Assembly: GCA_963729975.1 (NCBI GenBank)
Contig: CAVSPI010000001.1
Coordinates: forward strand, 2,766,625-2,830,624
Origin: an uncultured Acidobacteriota bacterium
GTDB lineage: Bacteria > Acidobacteriota > Vicinamibacteria > Vicinamibacterales > UBA2999
Length of the DNA stretch: 64,000 nt
Reading direction: 5' to 3'
Below, in pieces: positions 13,588-64,000 of this stretch (positions are counted from its first letter, which is position 1; each line of letters opens with the position of its first letter). A program made the translations under genes and the position numbers. The notes beneath the pieces were generated by a model. The model was not told the origin of the DNA. It did not search any database and was given only the letters and a program-made list of their open reading frames with translations.

Positions 13588-13632
13588 CTATGGCCGGTCG
13601 GACGGACGGGCTACGAGGTCGGGTAGCCGGCG

Positions 13633-13662: not shown

Positions 13663-13669
13663 CGAGCTG

Positions 13670-14329
13670 TCAGTACTGCCGGAACGTCAGGTTGAAGCGG
13701 CCTTGCATCGCCAACGCCGGCGGCGCCGTCCCGGAAACGATGCGCGAGACGCCGTGGTAGCGCAACCGCGCCGGTCCGCCGAATACGAAGACGTCGCCCG
13801 ACTCCAGCCACACGCTCTCCACCGGATCACGGCGGCGCAGGCCGCCGAAGAGAAAGCGCGCAGTGTCGCCGAGCGAGATCGAGACGACCGGCCATCCGGC
13901 ACGGATCGACTCGACCCCTTCATCCTTGTCCTGATGCAGGCCCATGCGGCCGTCAGCGTCGTAGAAGTTGATCACGGCGATGTCAGGATGCAGCGCGAAC
14001 CCCGCACTCGCGGCAAGGTCCGCCGCCATCGCCACCCAGGCGTCGGGCACCGCGGCCACGGGCGCGTTGTCGTAGTCGGCGCGCGTCGCCTCGTAGGTGT
14101 AGGTGCGCGCGTTCCAGTGGCGGCCCAGGCAGGTCATGCGGACACGCATCGTGCCGCCGCCGCGGACGGTCGGCACGTAACCGCCCGCGGGGCCGTCCAT
14201 GATCGCGCGGCTGCGCGCCACCAGCGCGGTCTGCTCGTCGGCCGACAGCCAGGACCTGAGCCAGACGGCGCCAGGTCCCATCTCCACCCGCTCGCGGGGC
14301 CGCTCGAGGCCGGCCAGCAGCGACGCCAT
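13670..14329 (-). CDS. alkB: Alpha-ketoglutarate/Fe(II)-dependent dioxygenase AlkB (DNA/RNA alkylation repair).
   Basis: MASLLAGLERPRERVEMGPGAVWLRSWLSADEQTALV...INFYDADGRMGLHQDKDEGV...PVVSISLGDTARFLF...ESGDVFVFGGPARLRYHGV carries the HxD...H 2OG-Fe motifs. ATG at 14329 has AGGA 4 nt upstream. The track ORF begins 7 codons earlier at a TTG. Confidence 0.85.
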   Translation of the reverse strand: MASLLAGLERPRERVEMGPGAVWLRSWLSADEQTALVARSRAIMDGPAGGYVPTVRGGGTMRVRMTCLGRHWNARTYTYEATRADYDNAPVAAVPDAWVAMAADLAASAGFALHPDIAVINFYDADGRMGLHQDKDEGVESIRAGWPVVSISLGDTARFLFGGLRRRDPVESVWLESGDVFVFGGPARLRYHGVSRIVSGTAPPALAMQGRFNLTFRQY

Positions 14330-14353
14330 CGTTCCTGCGCTCGAGGACAACCG

Positions 14354-15583
14354 CTACCGCGCGGGCTCGAGCGTGAGCAGCGCCCCGTCATCCTCGTCGG
14401 TGAGGACATAGAGCAGTCCATCGGGTCCCTGACGGACGTTGCGGATGCGCTGCCGTAGATCCACGAAGAACGCTTCGCGCCGGACTTCCTCCCAGTTCTC
14501 GTTGAAGACGATGCGATGCATCTGCCCGGTGCCGGGGATGCGGCCAAACTGCAGTCCGCCGACGAACAGGTTGTTCTTCCACGCCGGGAAGCGATCGCCG
14601 GTGTAGAACGTCATGCCGGAAATTGCGATGGAGGGCGTCCACACCAGCACCGGGTCCTCGAATCCCTGCTTCATCGTCTCCGCCGAGACGCGCGCGCCGC
14701 TGTACTGCCGACCGTAGCTGACAATCGGCCAGCCGTAGTTGCCGCCGGCCTTGAGGATGTTGACCTCGTCGCCGCCGAGCGGGCCGTTCTCGTTCTGCCA
14801 CACCGCCCCGGTCGCCGGATGGATGGTCATGCCGAGCATGTTGCGGTGACCGAGCGAGTAAATCTCTGGCTTGTGGCCGGCGCGGCCGACAAACGGGTTG
14901 TCTGGCGGGACGCTGCCGTCGTCGCGGAAGCGCAGGATCTTGCCGAAATGGCTGTTCGGGTTCTGCGCGACTTCGTCGTTGGCGCCGCCGACAGCCATGT
15001 AGAGAAGGCCGTCCCGGCCGAACGTCAGGCCCATGCCGGCTGCCGGGCCGCCGCCCACGGCATCGGCCACGAACAGCTCCTTCACGTCCACCAGCGTCAT
15101 GCCATCGAGACGGCCGCGCAGCAGTGCTGATGTATGTGCCTTCTCACCAACCGACTTGGTGAAACTCATGTAGACGAGCCGCGTCTCGGCAAAGCGCGGA
15201 TGCAGCGCAATGTCCATGAGGCCGCCCAGCGAGGCGTTGTGGACCGCGGGGATGCCGGCGATCGGCGTGGGATCGAGGACACCCTTGCGCATGATGCGCA
15301 GCCGGCCTGGCCGCTCGGTGATGAGCATGTTGCCGTCCGGCATGAACGCCAGACTCCACGGATGCGACAGGCCCTTCGTCACCGTGACGCGCACCGGCCC
15401 CTGCTCGGCGGTGTCGATGCTGAAGGGGCTGTTCGGCAGCGGCTTCGCCGGCATCGCCGGCGCTGGCGGCGGAGCGGCACCTTGCCCGCGTGCCTGGCCG
15501 GACAGCGGCGCAGTGACGGCGACCAGCGCGGCCGCGAGTGTCAGGCCGGACAGCGTGCCACGACGAGATGAGAACATAGACAT
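14354..15583 (-). CDS. Soluble PQQ-dependent sugar (glucose/sorbosone) dehydrogenase, beta-propeller, secreted.
   Basis: ATG at 15583 with GGAG upstream. Signal peptide MSMFSSRRGTLSGLTLAAALVAVTAPLSGQA. GLSHPWSLAFMPDGNMLITERPGRLR...IYSLGHRNMLGMTIHPATGAVWQNENGPLGGDEVNILKAGGNYGWP is typical of the GSDH family. Confidence 0.85.
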   Translation of the reverse strand: MSMFSSRRGTLSGLTLAAALVAVTAPLSGQARGQGAAPPPAPAMPAKPLPNSPFSIDTAEQGPVRVTVTKGLSHPWSLAFMPDGNMLITERPGRLRIMRKGVLDPTPIAGIPAVHNASLGGLMDIALHPRFAETRLVYMSFTKSVGEKAHTSALLRGRLDGMTLVDVKELFVADAVGGGPAAGMGLTFGRDGLLYMAVGGANDEVAQNPNSHFGKILRFRDDGSVPPDNPFVGRAGHKPEIYSLGHRNMLGMTIHPATGAVWQNENGPLGGDEVNILKAGGNYGWPIVSYGRQYSGARVSAETMKQGFEDPVLVWTPSIAISGMTFYTGDRFPAWKNNLFVGGLQFGRIPGTGQMHRIVFNENWEEVRREAFFVDLRQRIRNVRQGPDGLLYVLTDEDDGALLTLEPAR

Positions 15584-15635: not shown

Positions 15636-17155
15636 TCAGCGGCGACGCGACCCGCCGACGATACCACCGAGCAGTCCGCGCAAGATCTGCCGGCCGACCT
15701 GGGTGCCGACGGTGCGCGCCGCCTGCTTGGCCATCGTTTCCATCATGCCCTGCCGCCGGCCCGTACCCCACAGGAAGTCGTTGATGGCGCTGCCCGACTC
15801 GGGCTTTCCTTTCGGCGCTGCGGCCGCCGGTGCGGCGGGGACCGGCGCCGCCGGAACGGGCGGCGGCGCGGTGGCGCGGCGGGCCAGCATCTCGTAGGCC
15901 GACTCGCGGTTGACCGCGGTGTCGTACTTGCGCGCCGACCGGACTGCGCGCACGCACCGCCGCGCGCTCCTCGGCCGTGATCGCACCCATGCGGCAGCGC
16001 GGCGGGCGCGATCAGCGTCCGCTCGACCGGCATCGGCACGCCCTTGTCCTGCAGCGTCGACACCAGCGCCTCGCCGACGCCCAGCTTCGAGATCGCCGCC
16101 GCGACGTCGAGCCTCGGATTCGGCGACGAAGGTCTCGGCGGCCGACGCGCACCGCCTTCTGGTCGCGCGGCGTGTACGCGCGCAGCGCGTGCTGGATGCG
16201 GTTGCCGAGCTGGCCGCAGGATCTCGTCGGGCACGTCGTCGGGGAACTGCGAGCAGAAGTACACGCCCACGCCCTTCGAGCGGATCAGCCGCACCACCTG
16301 CTCGACGCGCTGCCGCAGCGCCGGCGGCGCGTCGTCGAACAGCAGGTGCGCTTCGTCGAAGATGAACACCAGCTTCGGCGTTGTCCAGGTCGCCGACTTC
16401 GGGCAGGTTCTCGAACAGTTCCGACAGCAGCCACAGCAGGAAGCTGGAATAGAGGCGCGGCTTCAGGATCAGCTGATCGGCGGCCAGGACGTTGATGACG
16501 CCGCGGCCGCTCGAGGTCGGTGCGCATGCAGGTCGGCCAGCTCCAGCGCCGGCTCGCCGAAGAAGCGGTCGCCGCCGCTCGCGCTCGAGCGACAGCAGCG
16601 CGCGCTGGATGGCGCCGATCGACTGCGCGCTGACCAGACCGTAGCTCGTCGAGATCTCCTTGCGCGTGTCGGCGACGCAGGCCGAGCAGCGCGCGCAGGT
16701 CGTCCAGGTCGAGCAGCAGCAGGCCGTGGTCGTCGGCCAGCTTGAACGCGATGTCGAGCACGCCGGTCTGCGTGTCGTTCAGCTCGAGGATGCGCGCCAG
16801 CAGCGTCGGGCCCGATCTCGCTGACCGTGGTGCGCACCGGGTGGCCCGGCTTGCCGTACAGGTCCCAGAAGACCACCGGGCTCGGCTCGTGGCGCGTAGC
16901 CGTCGAGCCCGATGCTGTGCGACGCCGCTGCGGCATCGCGTCGTTGCACGTGCCCGGCACGGCCAGTCCGGCGACGTCGCCCTTCACGTCGGCCATGAAC
17001 ACCGGCACGCCCATGCGCGAGAAACCTTCGGCCAGCATCATCAGCGAGACGGTCTTGCCGGTCCCGGTGGCGCCGGCGACCAGCCCGTGGCGGTTGCCAT
17101 ACTTTCCGAGCAGCACGACCGGCTGCTCGCCTTTCCCGATCGTTATCGATGTCAC
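15636..17155 (-). pseudogene. HerA-like ATPase (DUF853, E. coli YjgR family) broken into at least 4 frame segments.
   Basis: In order 5'>3' on the minus strand: 16469..17155 [65 protein letters not shown] (Walker A); 16285..16761 [26 protein letters not shown]; 15743..16369 [51 protein letters not shown] (Walker B DEAH); 15636..15986 ...GMMETMAKQAARTVGTQVGRQILRGLLGGIVGG (YjgR C-terminus). All four segments are in different frames. Confidence 0.75.
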
Positions 17156-17745
17156 CCTTGACTCCGCCCTGTATCGACGGCAGGCAGTCTGAGCTCGCCG
17201 TCGTCATCAGGCCAACCTTCGTAGACGATGTGATCCACGTCACCGAACTGGACGATACGGCCCGGCACGAACCCGAGCCGTTCGGCGACGCGCCGGGACC
17301 GCCCGTTGTCCGCCTGGATCAGCGAGACGACGTGGTCGTAGCGCCATTTCCTGAATGCCGCGTCGCGAACAGCCGTCGCCGCCTGCGTGGCATAGCCGCG
17401 TCCCCAGTACGGCCGATGCAGCAGCCAGCCGACCTCGGCATGTGCCGTCCCTTCGATGACCTGCGTCGCCAGGCCGATCTGACCGACGGGCGTGCCGGTT
17501 GCCCGCTCGGCCGCGAGCCAGAGTCCGTGGCCGTCGCGGCGGTAGCGATCCAGCTGACGGCCAATCCACTCCTCGCACTCCGTGCGGGAGTAGCGATGCC
17601 CGTAGAAGTGCGTCACGTCGGCATCGGCCATCATGACGGCCACGAAGTTCAGGTCGTCGAGCGTCATCTCGCGCAGCAGCAGCTGCTCCGTCTCGAGCAC
17701 GACGCGAGGCAGCCGGTCTGGCACCGTCAGGGCGTTTGCATGCAT
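17152..17745 (-). CDS. GNAT N-acetyltransferase (RimJ/RimL-like, Acetyltransf_3).
   Basis: ...LLLREMTLDDLNFVAVMMADADVTHFYG...WIGRQLDRYRRDGHGLWLAAERATGTPVGQIGL...GWLLHRPYWGRGYATQAATAVRDAAF. ATG confirmed at 17743-17745. Confidence 0.8.
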   Translation of the reverse strand: MHANALTVPDRLPRVVLETEQLLLREMTLDDLNFVAVMMADADVTHFYGHRYSRTECEEWIGRQLDRYRRDGHGLWLAAERATGTPVGQIGLATQVIEGTAHAEVGWLLHRPYWGRGYATQAATAVRDAAFRKWRYDHVVSLIQADNGRSRRVAERLGFVPGRIVQFGDVDHIVYEGWPDDDGELRLPAVDTGRSQG

Positions 17746-30855: not shown

Positions 30856-30913
30856 CCTGCCATTCTATCCATCCGCGCCGGCGGGGCGCGCCCGACCTGG
30901 CCCGCGCCGCGGT

Positions 30914-32013
30914 CAGTTCTGGCTGAATATCGCCACGACGATCAGGACCAGCACGGCCAGCAGGACGAGCAGCAGGATCTTCCAGACGCTGTACGGATGG
31001 CGGCCGGCGATCCGTCCCGGTATAGCCGTTGACGATGACCTGGAACGCCTTCGAGCCGTAGTTGTACGACAGGAGCCACACCGGCACCAGCACGTGCTTG
31101 AACGTCTGGCCGGAGTACTGCGGGTCGATGCGCAGGTTGCGGTAGGTATCGCCCGGGACCTGCTGCGCGCACAGCTGCTCCAGCTGCGCGTGCATCTGCT
31201 GCTGCGACCGCTGCGCGGCCTCGACCAGCACCACCTTGTAGTGCTCGACGACGTGGCCGGACAGGAACGCCGTGTCGTAGGCGACGACCTCCTGGTCGGG
31301 AACGGCTCGACCTGCTTGCAGCAGGTCGAGCGGCAGTCCCTGTGTCCCCGGCACCGCCTCGTCGTCGAAGGCGTGATCGATGGCGCCGGACGCGGGCTCC
31401 CAGCGGGTGCGCCGTTCCTGCCGCATGATCGGGCGCCCTTTCGCGTCGCGCCCCGGCACGGTCACGTAGTAGTAGTGGCCGGCCTCCGCCTGCCACGGAC
31501 AGTGCACGCGGGCGTCGAAGGTCCAGTACGGAATGTAGAGGCTGTGCACCGTGTCGACCAGGGCGGCCTGCGACAGCCGGCCGGGCGCCAGCCACTTGCT
31601 CTCGCCACCAGCGGCGGATGTCGTCGCGCACCGCGACGCGATCGACGCGGAACGGCAGCAGCCCTGCGGCCGGATCGGCGACTTGATCTCCGTCGTAGTC
31701 GACCAGCGCCGGCGAGCCGCAGAACTCGCAGTTCTGGCCGACGCGCTCCGGGTCGAAGACCATCACGGCGCGGCACGACTGGCACTGCACGCTGCGCCGC
31801 GCGGTCAGCCAGCCGCGCTCGTCCTCGGGCAGCTCGCGCAGCGCCGCGCACCAGGTCGACCTCGACGACCGTGCCGGTGTCGCGGTCGACCTGGTACGGC
31901 GATTCGGTGCCGCAGAACGCGCACCGCAGCTTCTGCGTCGTCGGATTCCATTCCGCCTGCGCGCCGCAGGCCGGGCAGGCGTGCTTCTCGAGCGCCGCAA
32001 TCTCCGTCGCCAT
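30914..32013 (-). pseudogene. Multi-zinc-ribbon protein with a C-terminal TM anchor, split by at least 3 frameshifts.
   Basis: N-terminal frame: MATEIAALEKHACPACGAQAEWNPTTQKLRCAFCGTESPYQVDRDTGTVVEVDL. Middle frame: ...SVQCQSCRAVMVFDPERVGQNCEFCGSPALVDYD...LLPFRVDRVAVRDDIRRWW. Third frame: HSLYIPYWTFDARVHCPWQAEAGHYYYVTV...VPVWLLSYNYGSKAFQVIVNGYTGT. Tail: KILLLVLLAVLVLIVVAIFSQN*, stop at 30914-30916. Confidence 0.6.
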
Positions 32014-32017
32014 CCGG

Positions 32018-33060
32018 CTACGACGAGAGGTAGCTGGTGACGGCGGCGCGCGCGATGCGCCAGGTCGAGCCGATCTTCTTGCCCTTCAGATCGCCCGATT
32101 CGAGCACCGCCATCACGTCGGCCTCGCAGACGCCGAGCGCCTGCGCCGCCTCGGCCACCGACATCAGCTCCGGCAGGCTCGGCGCCACCGTCGGCGTGGC
32201 CTGTCCGCCGGCAAAGCCGTCGCGCATCATCTGCTGCGCGAGGCCGAAGCCGACCGCGAGCTCGGCGGCGGTGCCGGCCGGCGCCGCCGCCGCCGGCTTC
32301 GAGGCCCTTCCCCATCTGATACTTCACGAAGTCGTTGAGGTTGCCGATCGCCGTCATGCTCGAACGCTTGTCGATCGCCTGCTCGACCTCCGGCGGCACC
32401 GACACGTTCTCGACGATGAAGCTGGTGATCTCGATGCCGTATTTTGCGGTGACCGCCGGGTTGATCAGCGGCAGCAGCGCGTCGCCGAGCTCGGTGTAGC
32501 GCGAGGCCACGTCGAGCACGGGCACCTTCGCCGAGGCGATCGCGTCGGTGAAGATGCTGACGATGCGCGAGCGCATCGTGTCGCTGAACTCGTCGAGCCG
32601 GAAGTTGTGATCGGAGCCGGCGACTTCGCGCAGGAAGGTCTTCGGCTCGACGATCTTGAAGTCGTAGGTGCCGAACGCGCGGACGCGCACGACGCCGAAG
32701 TCGGTGTCGCGCAGCATCACCGGGTTGGACGTGCCCCACTTGTTGCCGGTGAACAGGCGCGTGACGACGTAGTAGACGTCGGCCTTGAACGGCGAGTCGA
32801 AGCCGAACGGCCACGACTTGATCCGCGTCAGGACCGGGATGTTGTCGGTGGTGAGGGTGTGCTTGCCGGGACCGAAGGTGTCGCCGAACTCGCCGAGGTA
32901 GACGAACTGCGCCACCTGCGATTCGCGCACGATCAGCTGCGCGCCGTTCTTGATCGCCTTGTCCTCGTCGGGAAACCGCCACGAGAGCGTGTCGCGCGAG
33001 TCGTCGGTCCACTCGATGATGTCGAGCAGCTCGCCCTTGATGAAGTCCATGATGCCCACG
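32018..33060 (-). pseudogene. SPFH / band-7 (flotillin-like, YdjI-type) protein with a C-terminal excisionase-type HTH, interrupted by one frameshift inside a GGC repeat run at ~32281-32295.
   Basis: (V)GIMDFIKGELLDIIEWTDDSRDTLSWRFPDEDKAIKNGAQLIVRESQVAQFVYLGEFGDTFGPGKHTLTTDNIPVLTRIKSWPFGFDSPFKADVYYV...NLNDFVKYQMGKGLEAGGGGA, then after the shift TAAELAVGFGLAQQMMRDGFAGGQATPTVAPSLPELMSVAEAAQALGVCEADVMAVLESGDLKGKKIGSTWRIARAAVTSYLSS*. Start is GTG 33060 or ATG 33051. GAAGGAG lies upstream. Confidence 0.75.
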
Positions 33061-33794
33061 GCGGTGTCACTCCTTCTCTGCGTCGTCCCTTGAGCCACCT
33101 CGCGACGGCAACCAGGCCGGCACCCACCAGTCCATTCGAAGTTACGTCCTGCAGCCAGACATCGTTCCCCGCACGGCCTGCGAACGCCATGTCCGCCTCG
33201 CGACGGGCGCGCGCCAGCCGCAGCGGCAGCGCCGGATCGACCGGCTGCGACGTCCGGTCTTCGGCCTTCTGCAGTTGGGCGACCAGGCGCTGCGCCTGCT
33301 GCAGGTCGAGCATCGAGAGCGGCGATCCACAGTGCGGGCACCCCGCGCCGGCGGCAAGATCGACGGGCGCACCGCAGTTCGAGCAGTTGACGGCCTGCAG
33401 CGACTGCCGCAGCTGATCGATCTGCGGCGGCGTGAGCGGGCGGATGAAATCCTTCTCGCGCAGGAAGTCGAAAAACGTCGTGAACCGGCCATGCTCGTGC
33501 GGGCAGCGCCAGATACTCGAAGCGCGTGGCACGCTGCATGTCCGAGGTGCGCCGCAGCCGCGCCCGGCAGCGCGGACACTTGGCGAGGTCGGCACGGCCC
33601 GCCTGCGGCGCTGCCGCGCGCTCGCCGATCAGCCGGAAGAGCGCGAGCGTGGAGGCCGGCGTGAGGCTGAGGCTCTCGCGGGCGTCGAACCAGAACGCCT
33701 GACAGGAAAAGCAGATGTCGATCGTGACCGCGCGACGCAGGTGAGCGTCGAAGGTCTGCTCGAGCATCGGCGAAGCACAGCGCGGGCATTGCAC
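33061..33794 (-). pseudogene. TFIIB-type zinc-ribbon protein (YdjG-like), frameshifted near 33500. The 3' end is not resolved.
   Basis: Frame A: MQCPRCASPMLEQTFDAHLRRAVTIDICFSCQAFWFDARESLSLTPASTLALFRLI...KCPRCRARLRRTSDMQRATRFEYL. Frame B: CPHEHGRFTTFFDFLREKDFIRPLTPPQIDQLRQSLQAVNCSNCGAPVDLAAGAGCPHCGSPLSMLDLQQAQRLVAQLQKAEDR...GLVGAGLVAVARWLKG. Confidence 0.55.
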
Positions 33795-41264: not shown

Positions 41265-42797
41265 ATGAAACAAGCTGTGAATCGCTCGCGGGTGCGTCCG
41301 GTCTGGCGGTCGGCGATGCTCGCATGTGCCGGGGTCCTCGGGACGGCGGTCGTTCTCGTCGGCCAGCAGAATTCCACGGTGCCGCAGCCGCGCGCCGATC
41401 GGCTGCCGCCGCCTGGTCCGGCCAGTCCCAAGCCGAGCCGTGGCGTGCCGCGTGCTGATGGCATGATGCCGACGGTGCCCGCCGGCTTCACAGTGACGAG
41501 CTATGCCGAGCTGCAGGCGCCGCGGATGATGGTCTACGCGCCGAACGGCGACCTGTTCGTCAGCTCGCCGGCCGCCAACAACATCACGGTGTTGCGCGAC
41601 GCCAACAACGATGGCGTCTTCGAGTCGCGCGGCGTCTTTGCGCAGGGCGACCCGCCCGCCGGACGCCGCGGCGGCGGCCCGCCGCCGAGCGCCCCAAGCC
41701 GCACCGCAGGCGCCGCGCGCCGGCGCAGCGAATCCCGCGCAGGCGGGTGCCGCTCCGCAGGCGGGCGCTCAGCCGGCTGCGCCGCAAGCCGCGGCGCCGC
41801 AGGCCGCACGCGGCGCCGGCGCACCGCCGCCAGCACCAGCGGCCGGCCGCGGTCCCTCGATTCTCGGCGCCAACGCGCCGGCGTGCGAGGCGCCGCCGGA
41901 GTTCGTGAAGCGCGGTGCCCGGTGCGATCCAGGCGCCGTTCGGCCTCGCCTTCCACGATGGCTATCTCTACGTCGGCAACACGGCCTCGCTCGTCCGCTA
42001 CAAGTACGCCGAGCGGCGATCTGCAGGCGCAGGGCGCGCCCGAGAAGCTGATGGACCTGCCGCCCGGCGGTCACTACCACGCGCAACATCCTGTTCAACC
42101 GCGCCGGCACGAAGATGTACATCGCCGTCGGCTCGCGCTCGAACAACGACGCCGGCGAAGACTGCCGCCGCGCCGCCATTCTCGAGTTCAATCCCGGACG
42201 GCAGCGGTTTCCGCGTGTACGCGTCGGGCATTCGCAACCCGGTCGGCCTGGCGTTGCAGCCGGGCACCGACATCATCTGGACGGCGATGAACGAGCGCGA
42301 CAACCTCGGCGACGATCTCGTGCCCGACTACGCGACGTCGGTCAAGGAAGGCGGCTTCTACGGCTGGCCGTATTCCTACATCGGCAAGAACTACGACCCG
42401 CGCTACGTCGGCGCGTTTCCCGATCTCGTCAACAAGCACGATCGTTCCCGACGTGCTGATGCCGGCGCATGCGGCCGCGCTCGGCATCACGTTCTACACC
42501 GGCACGCAGTTCCCGCAGCGCTATCGCAATGGCGGCTTCGTGGCGCTGCACGGCTCGTGGAACCGCTCGGTGGCCTCGGGCTACAAGGTCGTCTTCTTTC
42601 CGATGAACAACGGCACGACCGGGACCGATCGAGGACTTCCTGTCCGGCTTCCTCACGACCACCGGCACGGACGGGACGCCCATCCAGACGTGGGGCCGCC
42701 CGGTCGGCGTCACCGTCGCACCCGATGGCGCGCTGCTCGTCTCCGACGACGGCAGCAACCGGATCTGGAAAATCAGCGCGTCGGCGAGCGCGCGGTA
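41265..42797 (+). pseudogene. PQQ-dependent sugar / L-sorbosone dehydrogenase-like beta-propeller, secreted, broken by at least 4 frameshifts.
   Basis: Segments in different frames: MKQAVNRSRVRPVWRSAMLACAGVLGTAVVLVGQ...FTVTSYAELQAPRMMVYAPNGDLFVSSPAANNITVLRDANNDGVFESRGVFAQG / ...[27 protein letters not shown] / [16 protein letters not shown] / ...[72 protein letters not shown] / ...[46 protein letters not shown] / ...[35 protein letters not shown]. Confidence 0.7.
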
Positions 42798-42841
42798 GTG
42801 CACGACTCGCGACTAGACAGCGCACCCTTCGGGGTGCGCTG

Positions 42842-43449: not shown

Positions 43450-44799
43450 CATGAACCCTCCTTCACTTGGTCGTTGCATCGCGTTGAATCTGCCCAACCA
43501 GCTTTGCCGGATGGCATCGGGCTGCGGCGCGAACTTCTGCACGCGGCCGCCGAAGCAGTCTGCCACGTATAGATTGCTCTCCTGATCGGTGGACACGCTG
43601 TGCGGACAGGTCAGACGCCCAGGCTGACCACCGGGCGCGCCCCAGCTGTAGAGAAAGTTGCCGTCGAGATCGAACTTCATGATCCGGTTGGTCCCGGTGT
43701 CGCCCGCCCAGATGAACTGGTCTGTGGTGATGAGGTGATTCACGACCAGCGTGTTCAGCCCCTTCCGGCCAGTGCGGCGAGCGCAGCGGCCACATGTCGA
43801 GGAACGTGCCGTTCACGTCGAACACCTGCATCCGCTGATGACCGCGGTCGACGCGAAGACGCGGCGGTCGGCGCTGATGGCGATGCTGTGCGGGACGCTG
43901 AACTCCGACGGACCGGGATTGGCCGGATCGACGGGCGGCGCTCCCCAGTCCATCAGGAAGCGATCGCTGGCGTCGAACTTGGCGACGCGCGCACCGCCGT
44001 AGCCGTCGCTGATGAAATAGGTGCCGTCCGGAAGCCAGGCGATGTCGGTCGGCCGGTCGAAGGTGTTCGGGCCGCGGCCGCGCACGCCGGCCTGACCGAG
44101 CGTGTGCTCGAGGCGGCCGTCGTAGGTGAAGCGATGGATGACGTGCAGCTGGTCGTCGATCACCCAGACGTGCTTGTCGGGATCGTACGGGTTCATCTTG
44201 ATCGAATGCGGTCCGCGTCCGCATGGCAGCTGACCGAAGAGCGCGTCGTGCCGCGGCCACTCGTCGACCAGCGCACCGGTGCGGTCGACGACGATGATCA
44301 CGTGCTCGAAGCGGCGCTCCCAGCCGCGGCGTGTGGCCGTCGGCTCGCAGGTGGCGGTGACGCCGTCGGTGTTGCTGTTGCTGATGCCGCGCGACGGCTC
44401 GAGGCTCGCGTACGGCGTCCAGGGCGCAGCGCCCTCGGGCAGCGGCAGTTCACCGCGCTGCGCGATCCAGATCCGGTCCGGCGTCTCGGCGAAGACCCCA
44501 CCCATCGACCCCCATGTCCAGCCATCGTGCGCATGCCGTGTGTCGGGCAGCGGCCGCGGCCAGTTCTCCACGATCTGGTACGGGCCAAACGGCCAGTCCT
44601 GCGTGCTGTGCCGCACCGCGGCCGGCAAAGCCGGCGCTGACGAGGCCGGCGCCGTCGAGGCTGGCACTGTAGCGGCCGGCTCGTCGCTCGACGACCCGCA
44701 CGCCGACAACAATAACGCCACCGACGACACGGCCACCAGCCGACGCACCCGACGCTGCTCCTGTAAACGCACGCACGCTCCCTTGCTGTTGACGCTCAC
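43450..44799 (-). pseudogene. NHL-repeat lipoprotein, frameshifted at least twice. Its last segment reads through into the downstream SnoaL gene with no stop.
   Basis: 43813..44799: MSVNSKGACVRLQEQRRVRRLVAVSSVALLLSACGSS...PHSIAISADRRVF. 43463..44260: ...LRVDRGHQRMQVFDVNGTFLDMWPL. 42937..43743: ...HLITTDQFIWAGDTGTNRIMKFDLDGNFLYSWGAPGGQPGRLTCPHSVSTDQESNLYVADCFGGRVQKFAPQ. Confidence 0.6.
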
Positions 44800-54293: not shown

Positions 54294-54932
54294 ATGCGAA
54301 GCAGAATGCTGAATTCGGTGATGGTGCTGGTGATGGCGGGCGCGCTCGGCGTCGCCGTCGCCGCGCAGGGTGGTGGTCAGGCCGCGCCGGGCGCGCAGGC
54401 GCCGCCGGCAGGCGGGCAGGGCGGCCGGGCCGGCGGCGGACGCGGCGGCGGGCGCGGGTTCAACCTTCCGCCACTGCTGATGGAAACCGATGCCTTCGCC
54501 GACGGCGGGATCGTACCGCAGAAGTACACCGGACGCGGCGGCGTGCAGCCGGCCTTCAAGTTCTCCGGCGCTCCGGCCACGACCGTGAGCTACGCGATCA
54601 TCTTCCACGACATCGACGTGTCGCTGCAGGGCGGCACCGGTGACGTGCTGCACTGGATCGCCTGGAACATTCCGGCGTCGGCGAACGGCATTCCCGAAGG
54701 CAAGCTCCCGGAGGGATCGGTGCAGGGCAACAACCTCACCGGGCAGCCGGCCTACATGGGTCCTGGCGCGCCGGCTGGTCCGCGCTATCACCACTACGTG
54801 TTCGAACTCTACGCGCTCAGCTCGAATCTCGACATTCCCGCCACGGCGAGCCGCGACGACGTGCTGAAGGCGATGCAGGGGAAGATCGTCGCCAAGTCGG
54901 CGTACGTCGGCCGCTTCCGCAGCGGCGAATAA
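54294..54932 (+). CDS. YbhB/YbcL-family (PEBP / Raf-kinase-inhibitor-like) protein, secreted, with a Gly-rich N-terminal linker.
   Basis: Signal peptide MRSRMLNSVMVLVMAGALGVAVAAQG, then GGQGGRAGGGRGGGRG. ...TVSYAIIFHDIDVSLQGGTGDVLHWIAWNIP...PGAPAGPRYHHYVFELYAL carries the PEBP motifs D-x-D and HRY/HHY. Confidence 0.85.
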   Translation: MRSRMLNSVMVLVMAGALGVAVAAQGGGQAAPGAQAPPAGGQGGRAGGGRGGGRGFNLPPLLMETDAFADGGIVPQKYTGRGGVQPAFKFSGAPATTVSYAIIFHDIDVSLQGGTGDVLHWIAWNIPASANGIPEGKLPEGSVQGNNLTGQPAYMGPGAPAGPRYHHYVFELYALSSNLDIPATASRDDVLKAMQGKIVAKSAYVGRFRSGE

Positions 54933-54999
54933 CCGTCCTCACCATCCGATGACGCCGCGCCGGTCACGGCCGGCGTCGTCGAGCGCCGCGCTCCGGGCT

Positions 55000-55914
55000 C
55001 AGCGCCCGCCCGCCGCGACGCGCTCGCTGCGCACCATGTCGACGCTGACGTGCAGCGCATGGCTCCCACCCCCGAGAATCACCCCGCGAATCGGACTGAT
55101 GTCGCCGTACTCGCGTCCGCGCGCCAGCGTGACGTGCGCGGTGGTCGGCAGGACGTTGTTGGTCGGATCGGCTTCAATCCACCCGACATCCGGGCAGAAC
55201 ACCGCGACCCAGGCATGCGAGGCGTCGGCGCCAATGCGCCGCGGCCGGCCGGGCGGCGGCTGCGTCTCGAGATAGCCGCTGATGTACCGCGCGGAAAGCC
55301 CGAGCGACCTGAGGCAGGCGATCTCGAGGCCCGCGAAGTCCTGGCACACACCGCGGCGGAGGCGGAACACTTCGGCGACGTTCGTGGCGACGGTCGTCGT
55401 CCCCGGCTCGAAGGTGAACTCTTCGTAGATGCGGCGCGTGAAGTCGCGCAGGGCGTCGAGCAGCGGCCGGCCCGGCGTGAACGACGGCCGCGCGTAATCG
55501 GCAAACTCCGGAGACGCCTGAATCGACGGCGAGTCGTACAGGCAATCGACCGCGTCGATCGGCATCGCCTCGGGGTTCATCGCCTGCTCCCACGCCGGCG
55601 TGTCGTCGTCCTCGAGGATGGGACGCGGCTGAACGCGGACGCGGCTGCGCGCCGTCACGGTCAGGCGGCGGTGGCCGCCCTGCATGGCGAAGAAGGTGGT
55701 CCGGTTGCCGAAATAGTCGAAATGCTCCGCGCGAACGGCCGGCGGCGGCTCGATCTGCAGGCTGCGTTCGAAGCACTGCTGATGCGGCAGCACGCGCGGG
55801 CTCAGGCGGGCCACGTGCTGCGAAACGGAGACGGCGTCGCTGTAGTCGTAGCGGGTCGTGTGCGCGACCTCGTACGTCACCGCCGCGGTGTCAACTGATT
55901 CGCTGTTCGGCATG
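55000..55914 (-). CDS. Transglutaminase-like family protein (Bact_transglu_N plus transglutaminase core), the terminal gene of the ATP-grasp/alpha-E/TGase cluster.
   Basis: MPNSESVDTAAVTYEVAHTTRYDYSDAVSVSQHVARLSP...RGVCQDFAGLEIACLRSLGLSARYISGYL...ASHAWVAVFCPDVGWIEADPTNN is the Cys-His-Asp core. Its ATG at 55912-55914 lies inside the last 8 codons of the upstream gene, a ~23 nt overlap. Confidence 0.85.
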
Positions 55915-58409
55915 GCTGAAGTAGTAGTAGGTGACCGTGTCGGACAACGCGCGCAGATGATCGTCGATCGCGTGCAGCAGTTGCGAGAGCGGATCGTAGG
56001 TACCGTGCGCGTCGGGCTGGCCGAGCGCATCGAGGTCGGCGCTGGCGAGCAGCTCCGCCACCTCCGCCACGTGCCGCTGCTCGCGCGTCGGCGACGGCGC
56101 CGCCTTGTCACGCGGCAGCTGCTCGACATGATCGGTGAGCACCGCGACCTGGAACGCCAGCGAGCGGGCGTTGGTGCCGTCGGCGAGCAGCAGGTCGAGC
56201 ACCGGCGGCAGCTGCGGCTGCGCGAAGTAGCGGCGCCGGTAGGTCATGGCGCTGTCGGCGATGTCGAGCAGCGGGCCGAGCATGGCTGGCGGCGTCGGCA
56301 CCGCGGTCACCGTGGTGTCGAGCAGCCGCGCCATGTTGACCGAGCGCTCCAGCCGGCGGCCGATGTCGAGGAACCGCCAGCCGTGGCCGCGGGTCATGTT
56401 CTCCATCTCCATGCCGCTGAAGGCCGCGAGGTCGGCGATCATCCGGTTCAGGTGCAGCAGCACGTCGTCGAGCTGAATGCGTCCGTGCCGCAGCCGGAAG
56501 TCCTGCCGCAGCTGGTTGAGGATGCGCCAGGTATCGGCCGACAGGCGGTCGCGCACGGCGCTGGCGTTGCGGCGCAGCTCCGCCAGCGTGCGGCGCATCC
56601 CCACCTGGTGGGTGCTCTGCTTGAAGAGCAGCAGCATGAGGTCCTGCTCGAGCTCGCGCAGCGGCATGCGCTTGCGCAGCCGCGCCGGCAGCAGGTCGAG
56701 ATCGACGAGCACGTGCAGCAGCGCCACCAGTTCCGGGGTGTCCTGGTGCGTGTCCTCGTCGGTCAGGCAGGCGACGATCGAGCGCAGCAGGCGAACGGTG
56801 TGTTCGGCGCGCTCGGCATGGCGCCCGAGCCAGAACAGGTTGTCGGCCACGCGGCTGGGCAGGTCGCCGCCGCGGCGCTCACGGCGAATCGTCACCGACG
56901 GCGGGGCGAGCAGCGAGACGGCGCTGACCGGACCGTCCGACATCACCCACGTATCCTTGCTGCCGCCGCCGCGCTGCATCGAGACGATCGGCACGTCGCC
57001 GTCGCCGGCGACGCGCGTCAGGCCGCCCGGCATCACCACGAAGGAGTCGCCAGCCGCGGCCACGTAGACGCGCAGCACCAGCGGGCGCGGCTCCATGCGC
57101 TGCGCGAACCAGACCGGCGCGCGTGACAGCCGCACTTCCTCCTGCCCGACGAAGTCATCCGGCCTGGCGCGAATCTCGTCGGCGAGGGCGGCGCGCTGGC
57201 CGGCGGTCGCGATGCGCCCGAACACCGGCTGCCCGGTGAGCGACGGGAACGTCCGCTTGATGACGAGCCGCTCGAGGTTGCCCAGCACGTACTCGCGCTC
57301 CGCCGGATCGCCGCACCAGTGCACCGGCACCGACGGCAGCTTCAGCTCCTCGCCGAGCAGATCGCGGCAGAGCGCCGGCAGGAACGGCGCATACGCCGGC
57401 GACTCGACGACGCCGGAGCCGAGCGCGTTGGCGATCGCCACGTTGCCGCAGCGCGCGGCTTCGACCAGGCCGGGCACGCCCAGCGTCGAATCGCCGCGCA
57501 GTTCCAGCGGATCGCAGAAACTGTCGTCGAGACGGCGCAGGATCACGTCCACCGGACGCAGGCCGTCGAGCGTCTTGATGAACACGCGGCGGTCGCGGAC
57601 CGTGAGGTCGCCGCCCTCGACCAGGGTGAAGCCGAGATAGCGCGCCAGGTACGCGTGCTCGAAGTAGGTCTCGTTGAGCGGTCCGGGCGTCAGCAGCACG
57701 ACGCGCGGTGTGTCGCGCGGCGCCAGCCCGATCAGCGTGTCGCGCTGCGCGCGGAAGAACGGCGCCAGCCGCTGCACCTGGCAGTCGCGGAACGCTTCCG
57801 GCAGGCTGCGCGACAGCACGATGCGGTTCTCGAGCGCGTAGCCGGCGCCCGAGGGCGCCTGCGTGCGATCGCCGAGCACCGCCCATTCGCCGTCCGGCGA
57901 GCGCGCCAGGTCGACCGCGTGCAGGTGCAGGTGCAGCCCCTTCGGGACGGGAATGCCGTGGCAGGGCCGCAGGAACGCCGGATTGCCGAGGACGAGCGCT
58001 GCCGGCAGCCGCCGCTCACGCACCAGCCGCTGCGGGCCGTAGAGGTCCGCGAGCACCGCATTGAGCAGCCGCGTGCGCTGCAGCAGCGCCGCCTCGAGAC
58101 GGCTCCATTCCTCGGGCGGAATGAGGAGCGGCATCATGTCGAGCGTCCACGGGCGGTCGACGCCCTGCGGATCGCCGTAGACGTTGTAGGTGACGCCGTT
58201 GTCGCGGATGGTGCGCTTGGCGTTCTCCCAGCGCGAGACGAGCTCGTGCCGGCCGAGCCCCTCGATCGAGCCGACGAACCGGTCGCAGTGCGGCCTACGG
58301 CTCCGTTTGCGCCGAGCATTTCGTCGAAGACCTTGGCGTCCGGCCGGTAGTCGTCGAGAAAGCGCCACGGTGTGGTCGATCCGGGAGGCTGTGTCGCAGA
58401 AGGTTGCAT
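55892..58409 (-). CDS. Fused circularly-permuted ATP-grasp plus alpha-E domain protein (M. tuberculosis Rv2567-like), with one apparent frameshift near 58300 at the 5' end.
   Basis: True N-terminus in frame 58134..60125: MQPSATQPPGSTTPWRFLDDYRPDAKVFDEMLGANG. After the shift it continues in frame 55891..58368: RPHCDRFVGSIEGLGRHELVSRWENAKRTIRDNGVTYNVYGDPQGVDRPWTLDMMPLLI...VVLLTPGPLNETYFEHAYLARYLGFTLVEGGDLTVRDRRVFIKTLDGLRPVDVILRRLDDSFCDPLEL...VAIANALGSGVVESPAYAPFLP...[12 protein letters not shown] (ATP-grasp). Alpha-E domain: ...ADNLFWLGRHAERAEHTVRLLRS. ATG 58409 sits 1 nt after the TGA of the upstream DUF2126 gene. Confidence 0.85.
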
Positions 58410-58410
58410 C

Positions 58411-61400
58411 TCAGACGGTGCCGAGCACGCTCGACTCCACTCCGTGACGGGGAGGGCGCCGCAGGTCGAGCGTGAACGGAAAGTCCGGGTTCCGTTCTTC
58501 GGGTGGAGCCGCCGTGGCTCCGGGCGTATGGCCGAGCGGAGAACCGCGCCAGCCGCCGGCTTTCGGCCTCGTAGGCGTTCACCGGGAACGTCTCGTAGCT
58601 GCGCCCGCCGGGATGCGCGACATGATAGGTGCAGCCGCCGATCGCGCGCTCGTTCCAGTCGATCGAGCAGGTCGAACACCAGCGGCGCATGCACCGGCGA
58701 TCGTCGGGTGCAGACAGCACGGCGGCTGCCAGGCGCGGTAGCGCACGCCGGCCACGAACTCGCCGGCCGTCCCGGTCGGATGCAGCGGCACGCGCCGGCC
58801 GTTGCAGGCGACGACGTGCCGCGGCGCCGGTCAGCCCGCGCACCTTCACCTGCAGGCGCTCGACCGACGAATCGACGTAGCGCGACCGTGCCGCCGCCGC
58901 CGGCTCTTCGCCGAGCACGTGCCACGGCTCGATCGCCTGCCGCAGCTCGAGCTCGACGCCGCGCTGCGCGACGCGCGCCGCAGCGCGGGAAGCGGAACTC
59001 GAAGTGCGGCGCGAACCAGTCGGGCTCGAATCGGATAGCCGCGCTGCGCGCAGATCCGCGAGCACGTCGTCGAAGTCCTGCGCGACGAAGTGCGGCAGCA
59101 GGAAGCGGTCGTGCAGCTCGGTGCCCCAGCGCACCAGCGGCTCGTCGTACGGCGCTCGCCAGAACCGCGGCGAGCAGCGCGCGCAGCAGCAGCTGCTGCG
59201 TCAGGCTCATGCGCGCGTGCGGCGGCATTTCGAAGGCGCGCAACTCGACCAGCCCCAGCCGGCCCGGTGCTCGCTGTCGGGCGAGTACAGCTTGTCGATG
59301 CAGAACTCGGCGCGATGCGTGTTGCCGGTGACGTCGACGAGCAGATGGCGGAAGACGCGGTCGACGAGCCACGGCGGCGCAGCTCGGCGCCGTCGGGCAA
59401 TCTGCTGAAGCGCGATTTCGAGTTCGTAGACCGCGTCGTCCCGCGCTTCGTCGACGCGCGGCGCCTGGCTCGTCGGGCCGATGAACAGGCCGGAGAACAG
59501 GTACGACAGCGACGGATGGTTGTGCCAGTAGCGCGACCAGGCTGCGCAGCAGATCGGGCCGCCGCAGGAACGGGCTGTCGGCCGGCGTCGGGCCGCCGAG
59601 CACGACGTGATTGCCGCCGCCGGTGCCGGTGTGGCGGCCGTCGAGCATGAACTTCTCGGTGCCGAGCCGCGTCAGCCGCGCTTCGTCGTAGAGCGTCGGT
59701 CGTGTTGTCGACCAGCTCGTCCCAGCTGTCGCGCCGGCTGCACGTTGACTTCGATCACGCCGGGGTCGGGCGTGACCTTGAGGTGTTGCAGCCGCGGATC
59801 GTGCGGCGGCGGTAGCCTTCGATGATGCACCGGCGATCTGCAGCGCGCGCCGCCGTCTGCTTCGATCGGCGGCGACCAGGTCGAGATAGTCTTCGGCCGA
59901 TGCGCACCGGCGGCATGAAGACGTGCAGCCGGCCCGTCGCGCGGCTCGACGCACAAGCGCCGTGCGCACGACCGGCGCCGACTGGCCGCAGCGGCGGACT
60001 GCTCGGCGCCAGCGGCACGGCCTGCGTCTGCCAGCGCCGTGCGCCGCGATCGCCGGGTCACGCCCGGCCGGCTCGCCGCGAGCGAGCTGCCGACTGCGCC
60101 GCCGGTCGCGCGGCCGCCGCTGCATCGCGATCGGCTGCCGCGACGGCGCGGCAGCGGCGGTCCAGCGGCGCGATCGGATCGGCCTCGTGCAGATACGGAT
60201 CGTGCCGGCGCGCCACCCACGGCAGCGAGTCGAGCGGCAGGCGAAAGCCCATCGGCGAATCGCCCGGCATCAGGAACAGGTGCTCGCGCGCGCAGGAACC
60301 ACGGCCCGCTCGCCAGCGCCGGCGCCGTCCGTTCGCTCGCGCACGCCGCGCTGCAGCGGCAGCACGTAGCCGACGACGTGCCCAGCCCCTGCTCGAAGAC
60401 GCGCGCCAGCCGCTCGCGCTCCTCGGGATTCTTCGAGCTCGGCTGTCGAGCGGATCGACGTTGACCGGCAGCCGGCGCTCCTTCCACAGGTAGTACCAGG
60501 CGTCTTCGTAGGCCGGCATGCACGTGCTCGGGATCGACCCGCAGCCGCTCGCGCCAGCGTCGGCGATGAAGCGCTGCGCCTCGCTCGCGGCCGAAGCCGT
60601 AGTCGTCGTCGCTCGTCGGCGATCGAGTGCGTCGATCGTGCCAGATCGGCTCGCCGTCGCGGCGCCAGTAGCAGCCGAGCGCCCAGCGCGGCAGCGACTC
60701 GCCGGGATACCACTTGCCCTGCCCGAAGTGCAGCAGGCCGCCCGGCGCGAAGCGATCGCTGCAGCCGGCGTGATGCAGCTCGCCGGCCAGCTCGCGCTTG
60801 CGTCGGGCCCAGCGCCGCCGTGTTCCACTCCGCGCCGTCCATGTCGTCGATCGAGACGAACGTCGGCTCGCCGCCCATCGTCAGCCGCACGTCGCCGGCC
60901 GTCGAGCTCCGCGTCGACGCGGTCGCCCGAGCGCGTCGATCGCGTCCCACTGCTCGTCGGTGTACGGCTTGGTGACGCGCGGGATCTTCGTGAATGCGCG
61001 TGACGCGTCATCTCGTGGTCGAACTCGACCTCGGCACTCGTCGACGCGCGCCGGTGACCGGCGCGGCGCCGACGCGGGTCGGGCGTCGCGGCCAGCGGAA
61101 TGTGCCCTTCGCCGGCGAGCAGGCCGGACGTCGGGTCGAGGCCGACCCAGCCGGCGCCGGGCAGGTAGACTTCCGCCCAGGCGTGCAGATCGGTGAAGTC
61201 GACGTCGGCGCCGGCCGGGCCGTCGAGCGACTTCACGTCGGGCGTGAGCTGAATCAGGTAGCCGGAGACGAAGCGCGCCGCCAGCCCCAGGTGGCGCAGC
61301 ATCTGCACCAGCAGCCAGCCGAGTCGCGGCACGAGCCGCTGCCGCGTCGCCGAGCGTCTCTTCGCGGCGTCTGCACGCCCGGCTCCAGGCGGATGACGTA

Positions 61401-61882
61401 GCCGACGTCCTGCTGCAGCGCGGCGGTTCAGCTCGACCAGGAAGTCGATCGTGCGCTGCGGCGTGCGATCGATGCGTGGCGAGAAACTGCGTGCAGACAG
61501 CGGCCCGGCCGGCTGCACTTCGCAGATACGGCGCCAGCTCCTTGCGCAGCAGCGGCGTCGTAGTCGAACGGAAACTGCTTCGGCGTACGGCTCGAGGAAG
61601 AAGTCGAACGGGTTGATGACCGCCATCTCGGCGACGAGATCGACCTCGACGGCGAGACTCGCGCGTCTGTCTCCGGGAAAGACGAGCGCGCGCCAGGTAG
61701 TTGCCGTGCGGATCCTGCTGCCAGTTGAGGAAGTGCTCGGCCGGCTCGATCCGCAGCGAGTAGCTGAGGATCGGCGTGCGGCGATGCGGCGCCGGACGCA
61801 GCCGGACGACCTGCGGCGACAGCGTGACCGGGCGGTCGTAGCGGTAGACGGTCTTGTGATGGAGCGCGACGCGAATGGCCAT
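58411..61882 (-). pseudogene. Large transglutaminase-family protein with a DUF2126 C-terminal region (M. tuberculosis Rv2566-like, ~1150 aa expected), shattered by at least 10 frameshifts.
   Basis: Recognisable segments in different frames: [65 protein letters not shown]; ...[26 protein letters not shown]; ...[89 protein letters not shown]; [32 protein letters not shown]; MPAYEDAWYYLWKERRLPVNVDPLDSR; [60 protein letters not shown]; RWGTELHDRFLLPHFVAQDFDDVLADL...[40 protein letters not shown]. Confidence 0.7.
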
Positions 61883-61889
61883 GCGGGTA

Positions 61890-62949
61890 TCGTGCGGACG
61901 CGCCGGACGTCCGGTCGGCCGATCGAGGACGGACGCGGCGGCGTCGCGCGCTTTGCGACTGGCTGCGGCGTGCCGGCGGCACCGGCGCCTGGCGGCAAAG
62001 AACGTCTCGTGAATGCCGGCGCTCGACCTGCGTTCATGCTTGCTCTGCAGCTCGTCGAGGTACTCGTGCAAGCCCGCCGTGGATGATGTCGTCGACCGAG
62101 CGTGAAGTCGAGCTCGGCGCAGAGCTGCCCGAGCAGCTGCTCGGCCGCGGTTGCGGAACGTGCCCGGCGGCGTGCCGGTGATCGCGTGCAGCGATTCGCG
62201 GCGCGGCGTCAGGCAGTAGCGCACGGCGCGCGGGAACTCGCGGTCGAGCAGCAGGAACTCGACGACGTCGGTCGGCGCGATGCGGCCGTGCCGCTTGCGG
62301 TACATCTCGAAGCGCGCTGGCCGACCGCAGCACCGCCGCCCACTGGATGTCGTCGAACGGCGTGCCGACGTCGCGCGATCGTCGGCAGCAGCAGGAAGTA
62401 CTTCACGTCGAGAATGCGCGACGTCTTGTCGGCGCGCTCGAGCAGCCGGCCGAGGCGGCAGAAGTGCCAGGCCTCGCCGTGCGACATCGTCGCGTCGGTG
62501 ACGCCCGCGAACAGGTGGCTGCGCCAGCTTGACCTCGGCGAAGAAGTCGTGCGGCGTCGCTCGGGCGTCGTGCCGCGACGCGCCGCGTCTGCGACCATGC
62601 AGGTAGAACTCGTTGACCTGCTCCCACATCTCCGACGAGATGATCTCGCGCACCGTGCGCGCGTTCTCGCGCGCCGACGCGCAGGCACGAGAGGATCGAG
62701 TTCGGGTTCTCGCGGTCGAAGGTGAGGAACTCGATGACGTTGTCGCTGCGTCGGCCGCGCCGTAGCGCTCCTCGAACGCGCTCGTGCGTCGCCGGTGGTG
62801 TCGACGAGCGGCTCCCACTGCTGCGCCGGAGCCGATCGGGCAGGTCGAGCATGCAGGTTCAGGTTGACGTCGATGAAGCGCGCGACGTTCTCGGCGCGCT
62901 CGATGTAGCGGCTCATCCAGTAGATCGAGTCGGCGACGCGGCTCAGCAT
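61890..62949 (-). pseudogene. Stand-alone alpha-E domain protein, multiply frameshifted.
   Basis: [32 protein letters not shown] (N-terminus at 62949); ...[21 protein letters not shown]; ...[25 protein letters not shown]; ...[45 protein letters not shown]; ...[34 protein letters not shown]...[10 protein letters not shown]...IHETFF. All lie in shifting frames. The 3' end is approximate. Confidence 0.65.
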
Positions 62950-64000
62950 CGGTCACGCTGCCCGATTCGCGCTGCGTCGATGACGCGCCGGTCGATGCCA
63001 CGCCGTTCAGCCAGCACCCAGGTGTCCTTGCTGCCGCCGCCCTGCGACGAGTTGACGACCAGCGATCCCTTCTTCAGCGCGACGCGCGTCAGCCCGCCCG
63101 GCAGCACGTAGATGTCTTCGCCGTAGAGGATGTACGGCCGCAGGTCGACGTGCCGGCCTTCGAGGTGGTCGTCGACGATCGTCGGGCACGCGCGACAGCG
63201 CCAGCGTCGGCTGCGCGATGTAGTTGCGCGGGTTCGGCCGCGATCCGCTCGGCGAACTCGTCGCTGCTCCGCCTGCGTCGCGTGCGGCCCGACCAGCATG
63301 CCGTAGCCGCCCGACTCGTTGGCCGCCTTCACGACCAGCTTGTCGAGGTTCTCCAGCACGTGCTGCGCGGTCCTTCTCGTCGCCAGCAGACGATACGTCG
63401 GCACGTTCGGCAGGATGGCGTCTTCGCCGAGGTAGTACTTGATGATCTGCGGCACGTAGGCGTAGACCACCTTGTCGTCGGCGACGCCGGTGCCCGGCGC
63501 GTTGGCCAGCGCCACGCGGCCGGCCGCGGTAGACGTCCATCAGGCCGGGCACGCCGAGCATCGAGTCGGCGCGGAACGCCTCGCGGGTCGAGGAAGTCGT
63601 CGTCGATGCGGCGGTAGATCACGTCGACCCGCTCGAAGCCCTTGCGTCGTCCGCATGCAGACGAAGCCGTCGGCGACGACGAGGTCGCGCCCTTCGACGA
63701 GCTCGACGCCCATCTGCTGCGCCAGGAAGCGAGTGCTCGAAGTAGGCCGAGTTGTAGATGCCCGGCGTGAGCACGACGACACGCGGCGACTCGACGTCGG
63801 CGGCGCCAGGTACTCGCAGCATGTCGCAGCAGCCGGCTCGGGTAGTCGTCGCACCGGGCGGATCCGCGACGCCTCGAACACCTGCGGGAAGGTGCGCTTC
63901 ATCACCTCGCGGTTCTCGAGCACGTAGGACACGCCCGACGGGCAGCGCAGGTTGTCTTCGAGCACGTAGATCTTGCCGTCGCCGTCGCGCACCAGGTCGG
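62943..64000 (-). pseudogene. Stand-alone circularly-permuted ATP-grasp (type 2) protein, 5'-truncated by the window edge and multiply frameshifted.
   Basis: ...[42 protein letters not shown]; ...[20 protein letters not shown]; ...[30 protein letters not shown]; ...[13 protein letters not shown]; [45 protein letters not shown]...[27 protein letters not shown]; ...[72 protein letters not shown]. These lie in several frames. Confidence 0.65.

Follow-up and report, generated by a model that had tools for sequence, protein, structure and literature searches.

A five-gene ATP-grasp, Alpha-E and transglutaminase operon of common order in an uncultured acidobacterium, with upstream genes probably disrupted by sequence error

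The 64,000-nt stretch of DNA analysed here (the window; part of contig CAVSPI010000001.1 from an uncultured Acidobacteriota bacterium) ends in a cluster of five minus-strand genes, at 54999-64000, that combines circularly permuted ATP-grasp (CP-ATP-grasp), Alpha-E and transglutaminase domains with DUF2126. An earlier note, made from the sequence alone, had described the cluster as two modules set back to back, of which the upstream one was heavily disrupted and might be a redundant copy in decay, and the downstream one essentially intact. We consider it highly probable that the cluster is an ordinary five-gene amidoligase operon of common order, and that the disruption of its upstream genes is random single-base insertion error, not biology. 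Of the two features that had been thought unusual, the arrangement is normal for the family, and the apparent decay would be a sequence-quality artefact; annotators of this contig should expect patches of insertion-type frameshifts, not pseudogenes.

Gene content of the cluster

The window carries all defining domains of the amidoligase system known from comparative genomics (COG2308, COG2307, COG1305), to which the earlier note had assigned these genes, in one co-directional and translationally coupled cluster whose order recurs across phyla; COG4196 we take to be DUF2126. First in the direction of transcription is a stand-alone CP-ATP-grasp gene (62943-64000, minus strand), of which the 3' end is complete (stop codon 62945-62943) and ~140-150 N-terminal codons fall past base 64000, where the window ends. 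Directly downstream of it lies a stand-alone Alpha-E gene (61944-62949, with its ATG at 62949), followed by a large gene for a transglutaminase fused to DUF2126 (58411-61882; ATG at 61882, TGA at 58413-58411; ~1,150 aa, with Bact_transglu_N and a Cys-His-Asp Transglut_core). The last two genes encode a CP-ATP-grasp fused to Alpha-E (55891-58409; ~839 aa, ATG at 58409-58407) and a small, intact transglutaminase-like protein of 304 aa (54999-55913).

The ~70% G+C of the window fills raw lists of open reading frames (ORFs) with spurious frames, and we therefore scanned both the raw ORFs and frameshift-repaired translations against Pfam, which bore out all five genes and the families that had been proposed for them. 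Among the raw long ORFs, 54999-56129 yielded Bact_transglu_N (87.5 bits) and Transglut_core (64.6 bits), and 55891-58368 yielded CP_ATPgrasp_2 (516 bits) with Alpha-E (231 bits) behind it; from 58.3 to 64 kb, fragments of DUF2126, Transglut_core, Bact_transglu_N, Alpha-E and CP_ATPgrasp were scattered over several frames. After repair, the large protein covered the entire DUF2126 profile (positions 1-826 of 826, 1346 bits) in addition to Bact_transglu_N and Transglut_core, the stand-alone Alpha-E covered its profile from end to end (1-294 of 294, 354 bits), and the visible part of the stand-alone ATP-grasp matched positions 74-374 of 374 in CP_ATPgrasp_2 (452 bits). The catalytic triad of the small protein can be recognised in its translation (Cys in GVCQDF, His in ASHAW, Asp in EADPTN), a second set of transglutaminase triad motifs was read off the translations as GSCRD, DLHAW and GLDPTS, and the transglutaminase triad C180, H229 and D245 is invariant across 42 homologues. 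An exact-sequence look-up of the small transglutaminase matched no record. The fused protein aligns throughout its ATP-grasp half (residues 10-452) to residues 32-474 of PDB 3N6X (E = 1.6e-87), presumably a structural-genomics deposit, which differs from it in standing alone, at 474 aa, without a fused Alpha-E; its name, 'putative glutathionylspermidine synthase', is a guess and not a demonstrated activity.

Both junctions around the fused gene are tightly coupled. The large and fused genes meet in TGA(58413-58411)-G-ATG(58409-58407), as the earlier note had reported for position 58409, and the fused and small genes overlap by 23 nt (ATG 55913-55911 versus TGA 55893-55891), an overlap also present in two relatives (L081 and L082); the note had the length of this overlap right and placed it one base off, at 55914, since the ATG begins at 55913. 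The 825-aa ORF that opens at GTG 58368 gives a wrong start for the fused gene: a 1-nt deletion near 58297 hides the ATG at 58409 with which the gene truly begins.

Origin of the upstream disruption

The frameshift load was estimated by frameshift-aware protein-to-DNA alignment with orthologues from four loci as references (L001, L002, L004, L083), and ab initio by a codon-model Viterbi parse with frameshift states that required start and stop codons. Gapped tblastn joined frames through weak similarity and masked frameshifts, and ungapped tblastn together with the frameshift-aware alignment was used instead. A plot of G+C at third codon positions shows the same frame throughout 55-58.3 kb and a frame that keeps changing from 58.3 kb to the window end. 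In the alignments, the upstream 5.6 kb needed 55-62 frameshift corrections, in line with the heavy disruption described before, and the downstream 3.4 kb needed one. Gene by gene, these apparent frameshifts number 35-41 in the large gene, 10-12 in the Alpha-E gene, 8-11 in the visible stand-alone ATP-grasp gene, one in the fused gene (the 1-nt deletion near 58297) and none in the small gene, which was compared with its L083 orthologue. Frame plots, codon model and homologue alignments together delimit a dense patch of single-base insertions at 58297-64000, running to the window end at about one frameshift per 90-100 nt, and ungapped tblastn with the orthologue from L001, the closest locus in the genome collection, put the number of frame changes in the large gene at 23 or more. 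Identity to orthologues in these alignments is 71-73% for the large gene and 83% (to the verrucomicrobial L004) or 78% (to L083) for the stand-alone ATP-grasp, against which the fused gene may be set with 73% to L001 and 93% at the protein level to P0001 from locus L081, its best hit in the protein collection.

Frameshifts that crowd in three upstream genes and are nearly absent from two downstream genes could also arise if the upstream module were a redundant paralogous copy truly decaying into pseudogenes beside a downstream module that still functions, and L001 lacks the stand-alone ATP-grasp/Alpha-E pair, which indicates that this pair can be lost. We nevertheless regard such decay as very improbable, beginning with the kind of damage that is seen. 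More than 55 indels coexist with essentially no nonsense codons (none after repair with L001, L002 or L004 as reference) and with no multi-base deletions in the disrupted upstream genes, the indel spectrum consists overwhelmingly of +1 insertions, and the Pfam matches run from end to end. In bacterial pseudogenes, deletions normally predominate. The patch also ignores gene borders, its first lesion (~58297) lying inside the fused gene.

The base-level comparison with L081, a 6.8-kb metagenome contig that aligns collinearly to the window, starting at the end of the large gene and reaching past a PEBP-family gene, sharpens this picture, as its 89% nucleotide identity allows indels to be placed to the single base. 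When the final 968 nt of the large gene are compared, single extra bases number 13 in the window and one in L081, whose frame is open. The insertion rate in the disrupted stretch is ~1.3% per base; in the adjacent 3.4 kb, the deletion at ~58297 is the sole net frameshift. Events that appeared as 2-nt insertions or deletions at the protein level resolve to single-base insertions in this alignment. Divergence from L081 in the disrupted large gene is dominated by third codon positions (mismatch at positions 1/2/3 of 0.10/0.056/0.238), as it is in the intact fused gene (0.037/0.016/0.216) and the intact small gene (0.092/0.059/0.32), and the loss of third-position bias expected of a pseudogene is not seen. 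Two technical explanations were rejected on the same alignment. Errors in homopolymer length do not fit, as only ~2 of the 13 precisely placed insertions adjoin an identical base, and neither does a chimeric join at 58.3 kb, as L081 is collinear across that point.

Patches of the same type hit unrelated genes in the window. The codon-model parse found dense frameshift patches at 15636-17700 (12 events), 30913-33767 (7 events) and 41463-42798 (8 events) and none in most other genes; over all patches the +1-nt class predominates, with 73 events versus 22 in the other class. The first of these patches (15636-17700, minus strand) covers a GNAT acetyltransferase ORF and then a HerA_C/DUF853-type ATPase gene (~15.9-17.2 kb), is insertion-dominated with the same signature as 58.3-64 kb, and gives a full-length HerA_C match (positions 8-502 of 502, 629 bits) only after ~12 repairs. 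Further frameshift-dense patches, at 30913-33767 (minus strand), 41463-42798 (plus strand) and 43611-44616 (minus strand), involve a zinc-ribbon protein, a Band_7_1/SPFH protein with an HTH_17 tail, a protein like glucose/sorbosone dehydrogenase (GSDH) and a neighbouring beta-propeller-like protein, and repair likewise yields the Band_7_1 and GSDH-like proteins.

The indel type, the lack of other damage, the signature of purifying selection, the conservation of the genes and the recurrence of the same patches in unrelated genes all argue for the error reading. As far as such sequence patterns can tell, the disruption of the three upstream genes points to patchy single-base insertion error, and all five genes are very probably intact in the organism. 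Several observations pull the other way. The error origin is deduced from the pattern of the lesions, and insertions outside homopolymers are atypical of the commonest long-read error mode. One in-frame stop, at 60058, appears with L083 as reference, in a poorly aligned linker. Across 62010-61860, a stretch that includes the gap between the Alpha-E C-terminus and the large-gene ATG at 61882, none of the three minus-strand frames offers a stop codon for the stand-alone Alpha-E gene, a codon that insertions have probably destroyed or displaced.

Split, overlapping tblastn segments of the large transglutaminase were also seen in two other metagenome-assembled genomes (L003 at 7343-9845 and L076 at 6354-8748), which suggests that this gene has suffered frameshift errors in further assemblies as well. 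The isolate names of both carry the prefix MFD, which we take to denote the long-read Microflora Danica project.

Gene order in relatives

Searching a single genome per species with the fused protein gave 80 loci, which were classified by local tblastn, and 58 of them had at least 6.5 kb of upstream flank. The exact five-gene order of the window occurs in 17 of these 58 loci and spans five phyla (Acidobacteriota, Verrucomicrobiota, Planctomycetota, Myxococcota and Betaproteobacteria); 21 have the three-gene core of large, fused and small gene, and in six further loci a stand-alone ATP-grasp is encoded at another place within 10 kb. In 48 of 63 loci, the gene immediately upstream of the fused gene is the large transglutaminase. 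The same five genes, intact and of normal length, are carried by two closer Acidobacteriota contigs, which share 74-75% identity with the window in the fused protein. The clustering is conserved, and, judged from these gene orders, the back-to-back arrangement that had been singled out as unusual is a common order for the family.

Gene order bears on decay as well. The large transglutaminase, as a member of the conserved three-gene core, is not redundant, and the two modules are only 42%, 25% and 29% identical domain for domain, which does not support the idea of a redundant copy. By these comparisons, the modules are ancient paralogues, each with well-conserved orthologues, and not the product of a recent duplication; cooperating parts are therefore a better view of them than redundant copies.

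In one of the two closer Acidobacteriota contigs, a Peptidase_Mx gene stands directly upstream of the cluster. Six other loci also have this accessory gene beside the cluster. As a Zn_ribbon_DZR_6/Peptidase_Mx gene, it stands directly upstream in L082 (1727-2830) and L083 (2915-4015), it lies downstream of the small transglutaminase in L003 (~13434-14569) and L057 (13324-14382), and it is also attached to the cluster in L019, L026 and L059. Compared with the amidoligase system as described, nothing substantive differs here; the cluster is without an adjacent Anbu gene and without the Peptidase_Mx gene of some relatives, no copy of which was found in the 64-kb window.

Proposed function

Taking domain content and gene order together, the cluster most likely encodes a system of ATP-dependent amide-bond ligases and cysteine amidases, which is our best reading. 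Starting from the folds and the operon structure, which are observed, we infer its chemistry, its substrate and its regulation in this organism as follows. The two ATP-grasp:Alpha-E units and a glutamine-synthetase-like DUF2126 would convert a carboxylate to an acyl-phosphate and couple it to an amine, and the two Cys-His-Asp transglutaminase-fold domains would hydrolyse or transfer the resulting amide bond, both steps being suggested by the folds. Peptides, conjugates of the gamma-glutamyl type and protein side chains are the candidate substrates, and expression would probably start from a sigma-54 promoter under nitrogen limitation.

The assignment of DUF2126 comes from its AlphaFold model, in which the nearest structures belong to the glutamine-synthetase-like ligase superfamily that includes PafA and Dop. 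Relative to known members of that superfamily (GlnA, GshA, gamma-glutamylmethylamide synthetase, PafA and Dop), DUF2126 has no detectable sequence similarity, is much larger (~830 aa) and forms part of a fusion with a transglutaminase domain. A number of results count against the proposed scheme. The model is poor (mean predicted local distance difference test score, pLDDT, of 56); searches of the PDB with the DUF2126 protein, by sequence and by profile, matched only the transglutaminase domain and nothing glutamine-synthetase-like; and a relaxed Pfam scan of the 42 homologues found no glutamine-synthetase-like family. As the earlier note had stated of the substrate, no substrate or product is reported for any member of the system in the literature that could be searched. 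The window's own promoter lies past base 64000, so that sigma-54 control is extrapolated from loci that are often closely related to one another. Literature searches on Anbu with ATP-grasp since 2019, and on DUF2126, returned nothing.

The regulatory part of the proposal draws on relatives. Within ~400 nt upstream of the first cluster gene, sigma-54-like -24/-12 boxes occur in 10 of the 17 five-gene loci (opposite strand, 2 of 17; shuffles, mean 0.95 and maximum 3) and in 10 of 33 other loci (opposite strand, 3 of 33; shuffles, mean 1.43), counts in which many loci are phylogenetically close and hence not independent. These promoters fit the induction under nitrogen limitation reported in Pseudomonas, where P. 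putida PP_2685 and PP_2688 rise ~16-fold on nitrate versus ammonium (PMC8050072). Boxes of the form TGGCAC-N5-TTGC were noted upstream of the first cluster gene in L004, L005, L007, L011, L015, L025, L026, L058, L064 and L077, and sigma-54-like boxes upstream of the large transglutaminase in L062, L069, L071, L072, L074 and others; several Betaproteobacteria have the box ~48 nt ahead of the start codon.

Enrichment of such promoters upstream of the cluster is also what would be expected if the system worked on small molecules, ligating an acid such as glutamate to amines or short peptides and hydrolysing amides of this kind, for nitrogen scavenging or storage when ammonium is scarce. Induction of the Pseudomonas homologues on a poor nitrogen source (PMC8050072) and the rise of Anbu in nitrogen-limited cultures (PMC5666114) agree with this route, which we hold to be possible, if doubtful: no transporter or amine-catabolic gene is consistently linked to the cluster in the inspected loci, and large multidomain proteins with paired transglutaminase domains are atypical of simple gamma-glutamylation pathways.

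The closest described operons are those noticed together with Anbu in 2008 (PMC3235984), four-gene operons of ATP-grasp, Alpha-E, transglutaminase and, as the last gene, the proteasome homologue Anbu (PMC3235984; PMC5666114), found in Proteobacteria and Cyanobacteria, for example P. putida PP_2685-PP_2688 and Yersinia bercovieri. The first module of the window has the same order, and control by nitrogen limitation or sigma-54 is likely common to both. The difference is that the transglutaminase here is the 1,150-aa DUF2126 fusion, which is followed by a second, fused module. Downstream, no Anbu gene adjoins the cluster; its upstream side lies past the window, and no scan for Anbu was made in the remaining window. 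In Yersinia, the ATP-grasp protein of the operon liberates phosphate from ATP, which speaks for the proposed chemistry; the operon's proteins formed no complexes in pull-downs and its Anbu was without peptidase activity (PMC6376114); the operon is dispensable under standard conditions (PMC5666114).

Papers citing Iyer et al. 2009 say that it read the operon as a peptide-synthesis or tagging system. Protein tagging and de-tagging resembling pupylation, with ligases attaching an amino acid or peptide to protein side chains and the transglutaminase folds removing or processing the tag, would be in keeping with the peptide tagging that those citing papers ascribe to Iyer et al., with the Anbu gene that ends the related four-gene operons (PMC3235984; PMC5666114), and with the DUF2126 model, whose predicted neighbours include the Pup ligase PafA and the depupylase Dop. 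We think it unlikely, as the cluster has unrelated downstream neighbours with no Anbu or proteasome-like gene next to it and shows no evident gene for a small tag, and as the Yersinia operon proteins formed no stable complexes among themselves and Anbu showed no peptidase activity (PMC6376114). A more elaborate version, for the family as a whole, would make the five genes, or six where Peptidase_Mx is attached, a machine under sigma-54 and nitrogen-limitation control, with three ATP-dependent ligase and two or three peptidase domains that build and trim a covalent peptide or gamma-glutamyl mark on proteins, which strikes us as quite improbable; if true, bacteria outside Actinobacteria would widely possess a counterpart of pupylation that has so far escaped notice.

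The M. tuberculosis locus Rv2566-Rv2569c presumably has a core made up of a large transglutaminase/DUF2126 protein, a fused ATP-grasp and Alpha-E protein and a small transglutaminase, like the three downstream genes here; we take it to be without the stand-alone ATP-grasp/Alpha-E pair and to have Rv2568c and Rv2569c on the opposite strand. Rv2569c, the homologue of the small gene, is reported as a secreted, host-directed protease (PMC11081392), and by analogy the small transglutaminase could act alone, its operon context being incidental. This we find hardly credible. The reported activity is blocked by serine-protease and not by cysteine-protease inhibitors (PMC11081392), which misfits a Cys-His-Asp fold, and a host-directed role makes no sense for a soil acidobacterium. 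The organism is environmental, the small gene is translationally coupled through a 23-nt overlap that is conserved in relatives, and no signal-peptide-like N-terminus is apparent in the translation when read by eye, with no predictor applied.

The family has thousands of homologues in many phyla. Two leads on it emerge from the comparisons, namely the enrichment of sigma-54-like promoters before the cluster and the glutamine-synthetase-like fold neighbours that the model suggests for DUF2126. The window itself adds one poorly sequenced member, and the functional question is no more testable here than in any intact orthologue.

Neighbouring genes

Downstream of the cluster follow a convergent PEBP-family gene on the opposite strand, an unknown gene, a hemerythrin gene and Fpg, and no terminator-like or sigma-70-like site was located after the last cluster gene. 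The PEBP-family gene (plus strand) shows a 12-nt in-frame length difference from L081 at 54441-54453, in a GC-rich CCGCCGCC repeat that encodes a Gly/Ala-rich N-terminal region of the protein; this resembles normal variation in repeat length and differs from the single-base insertions seen in other places.

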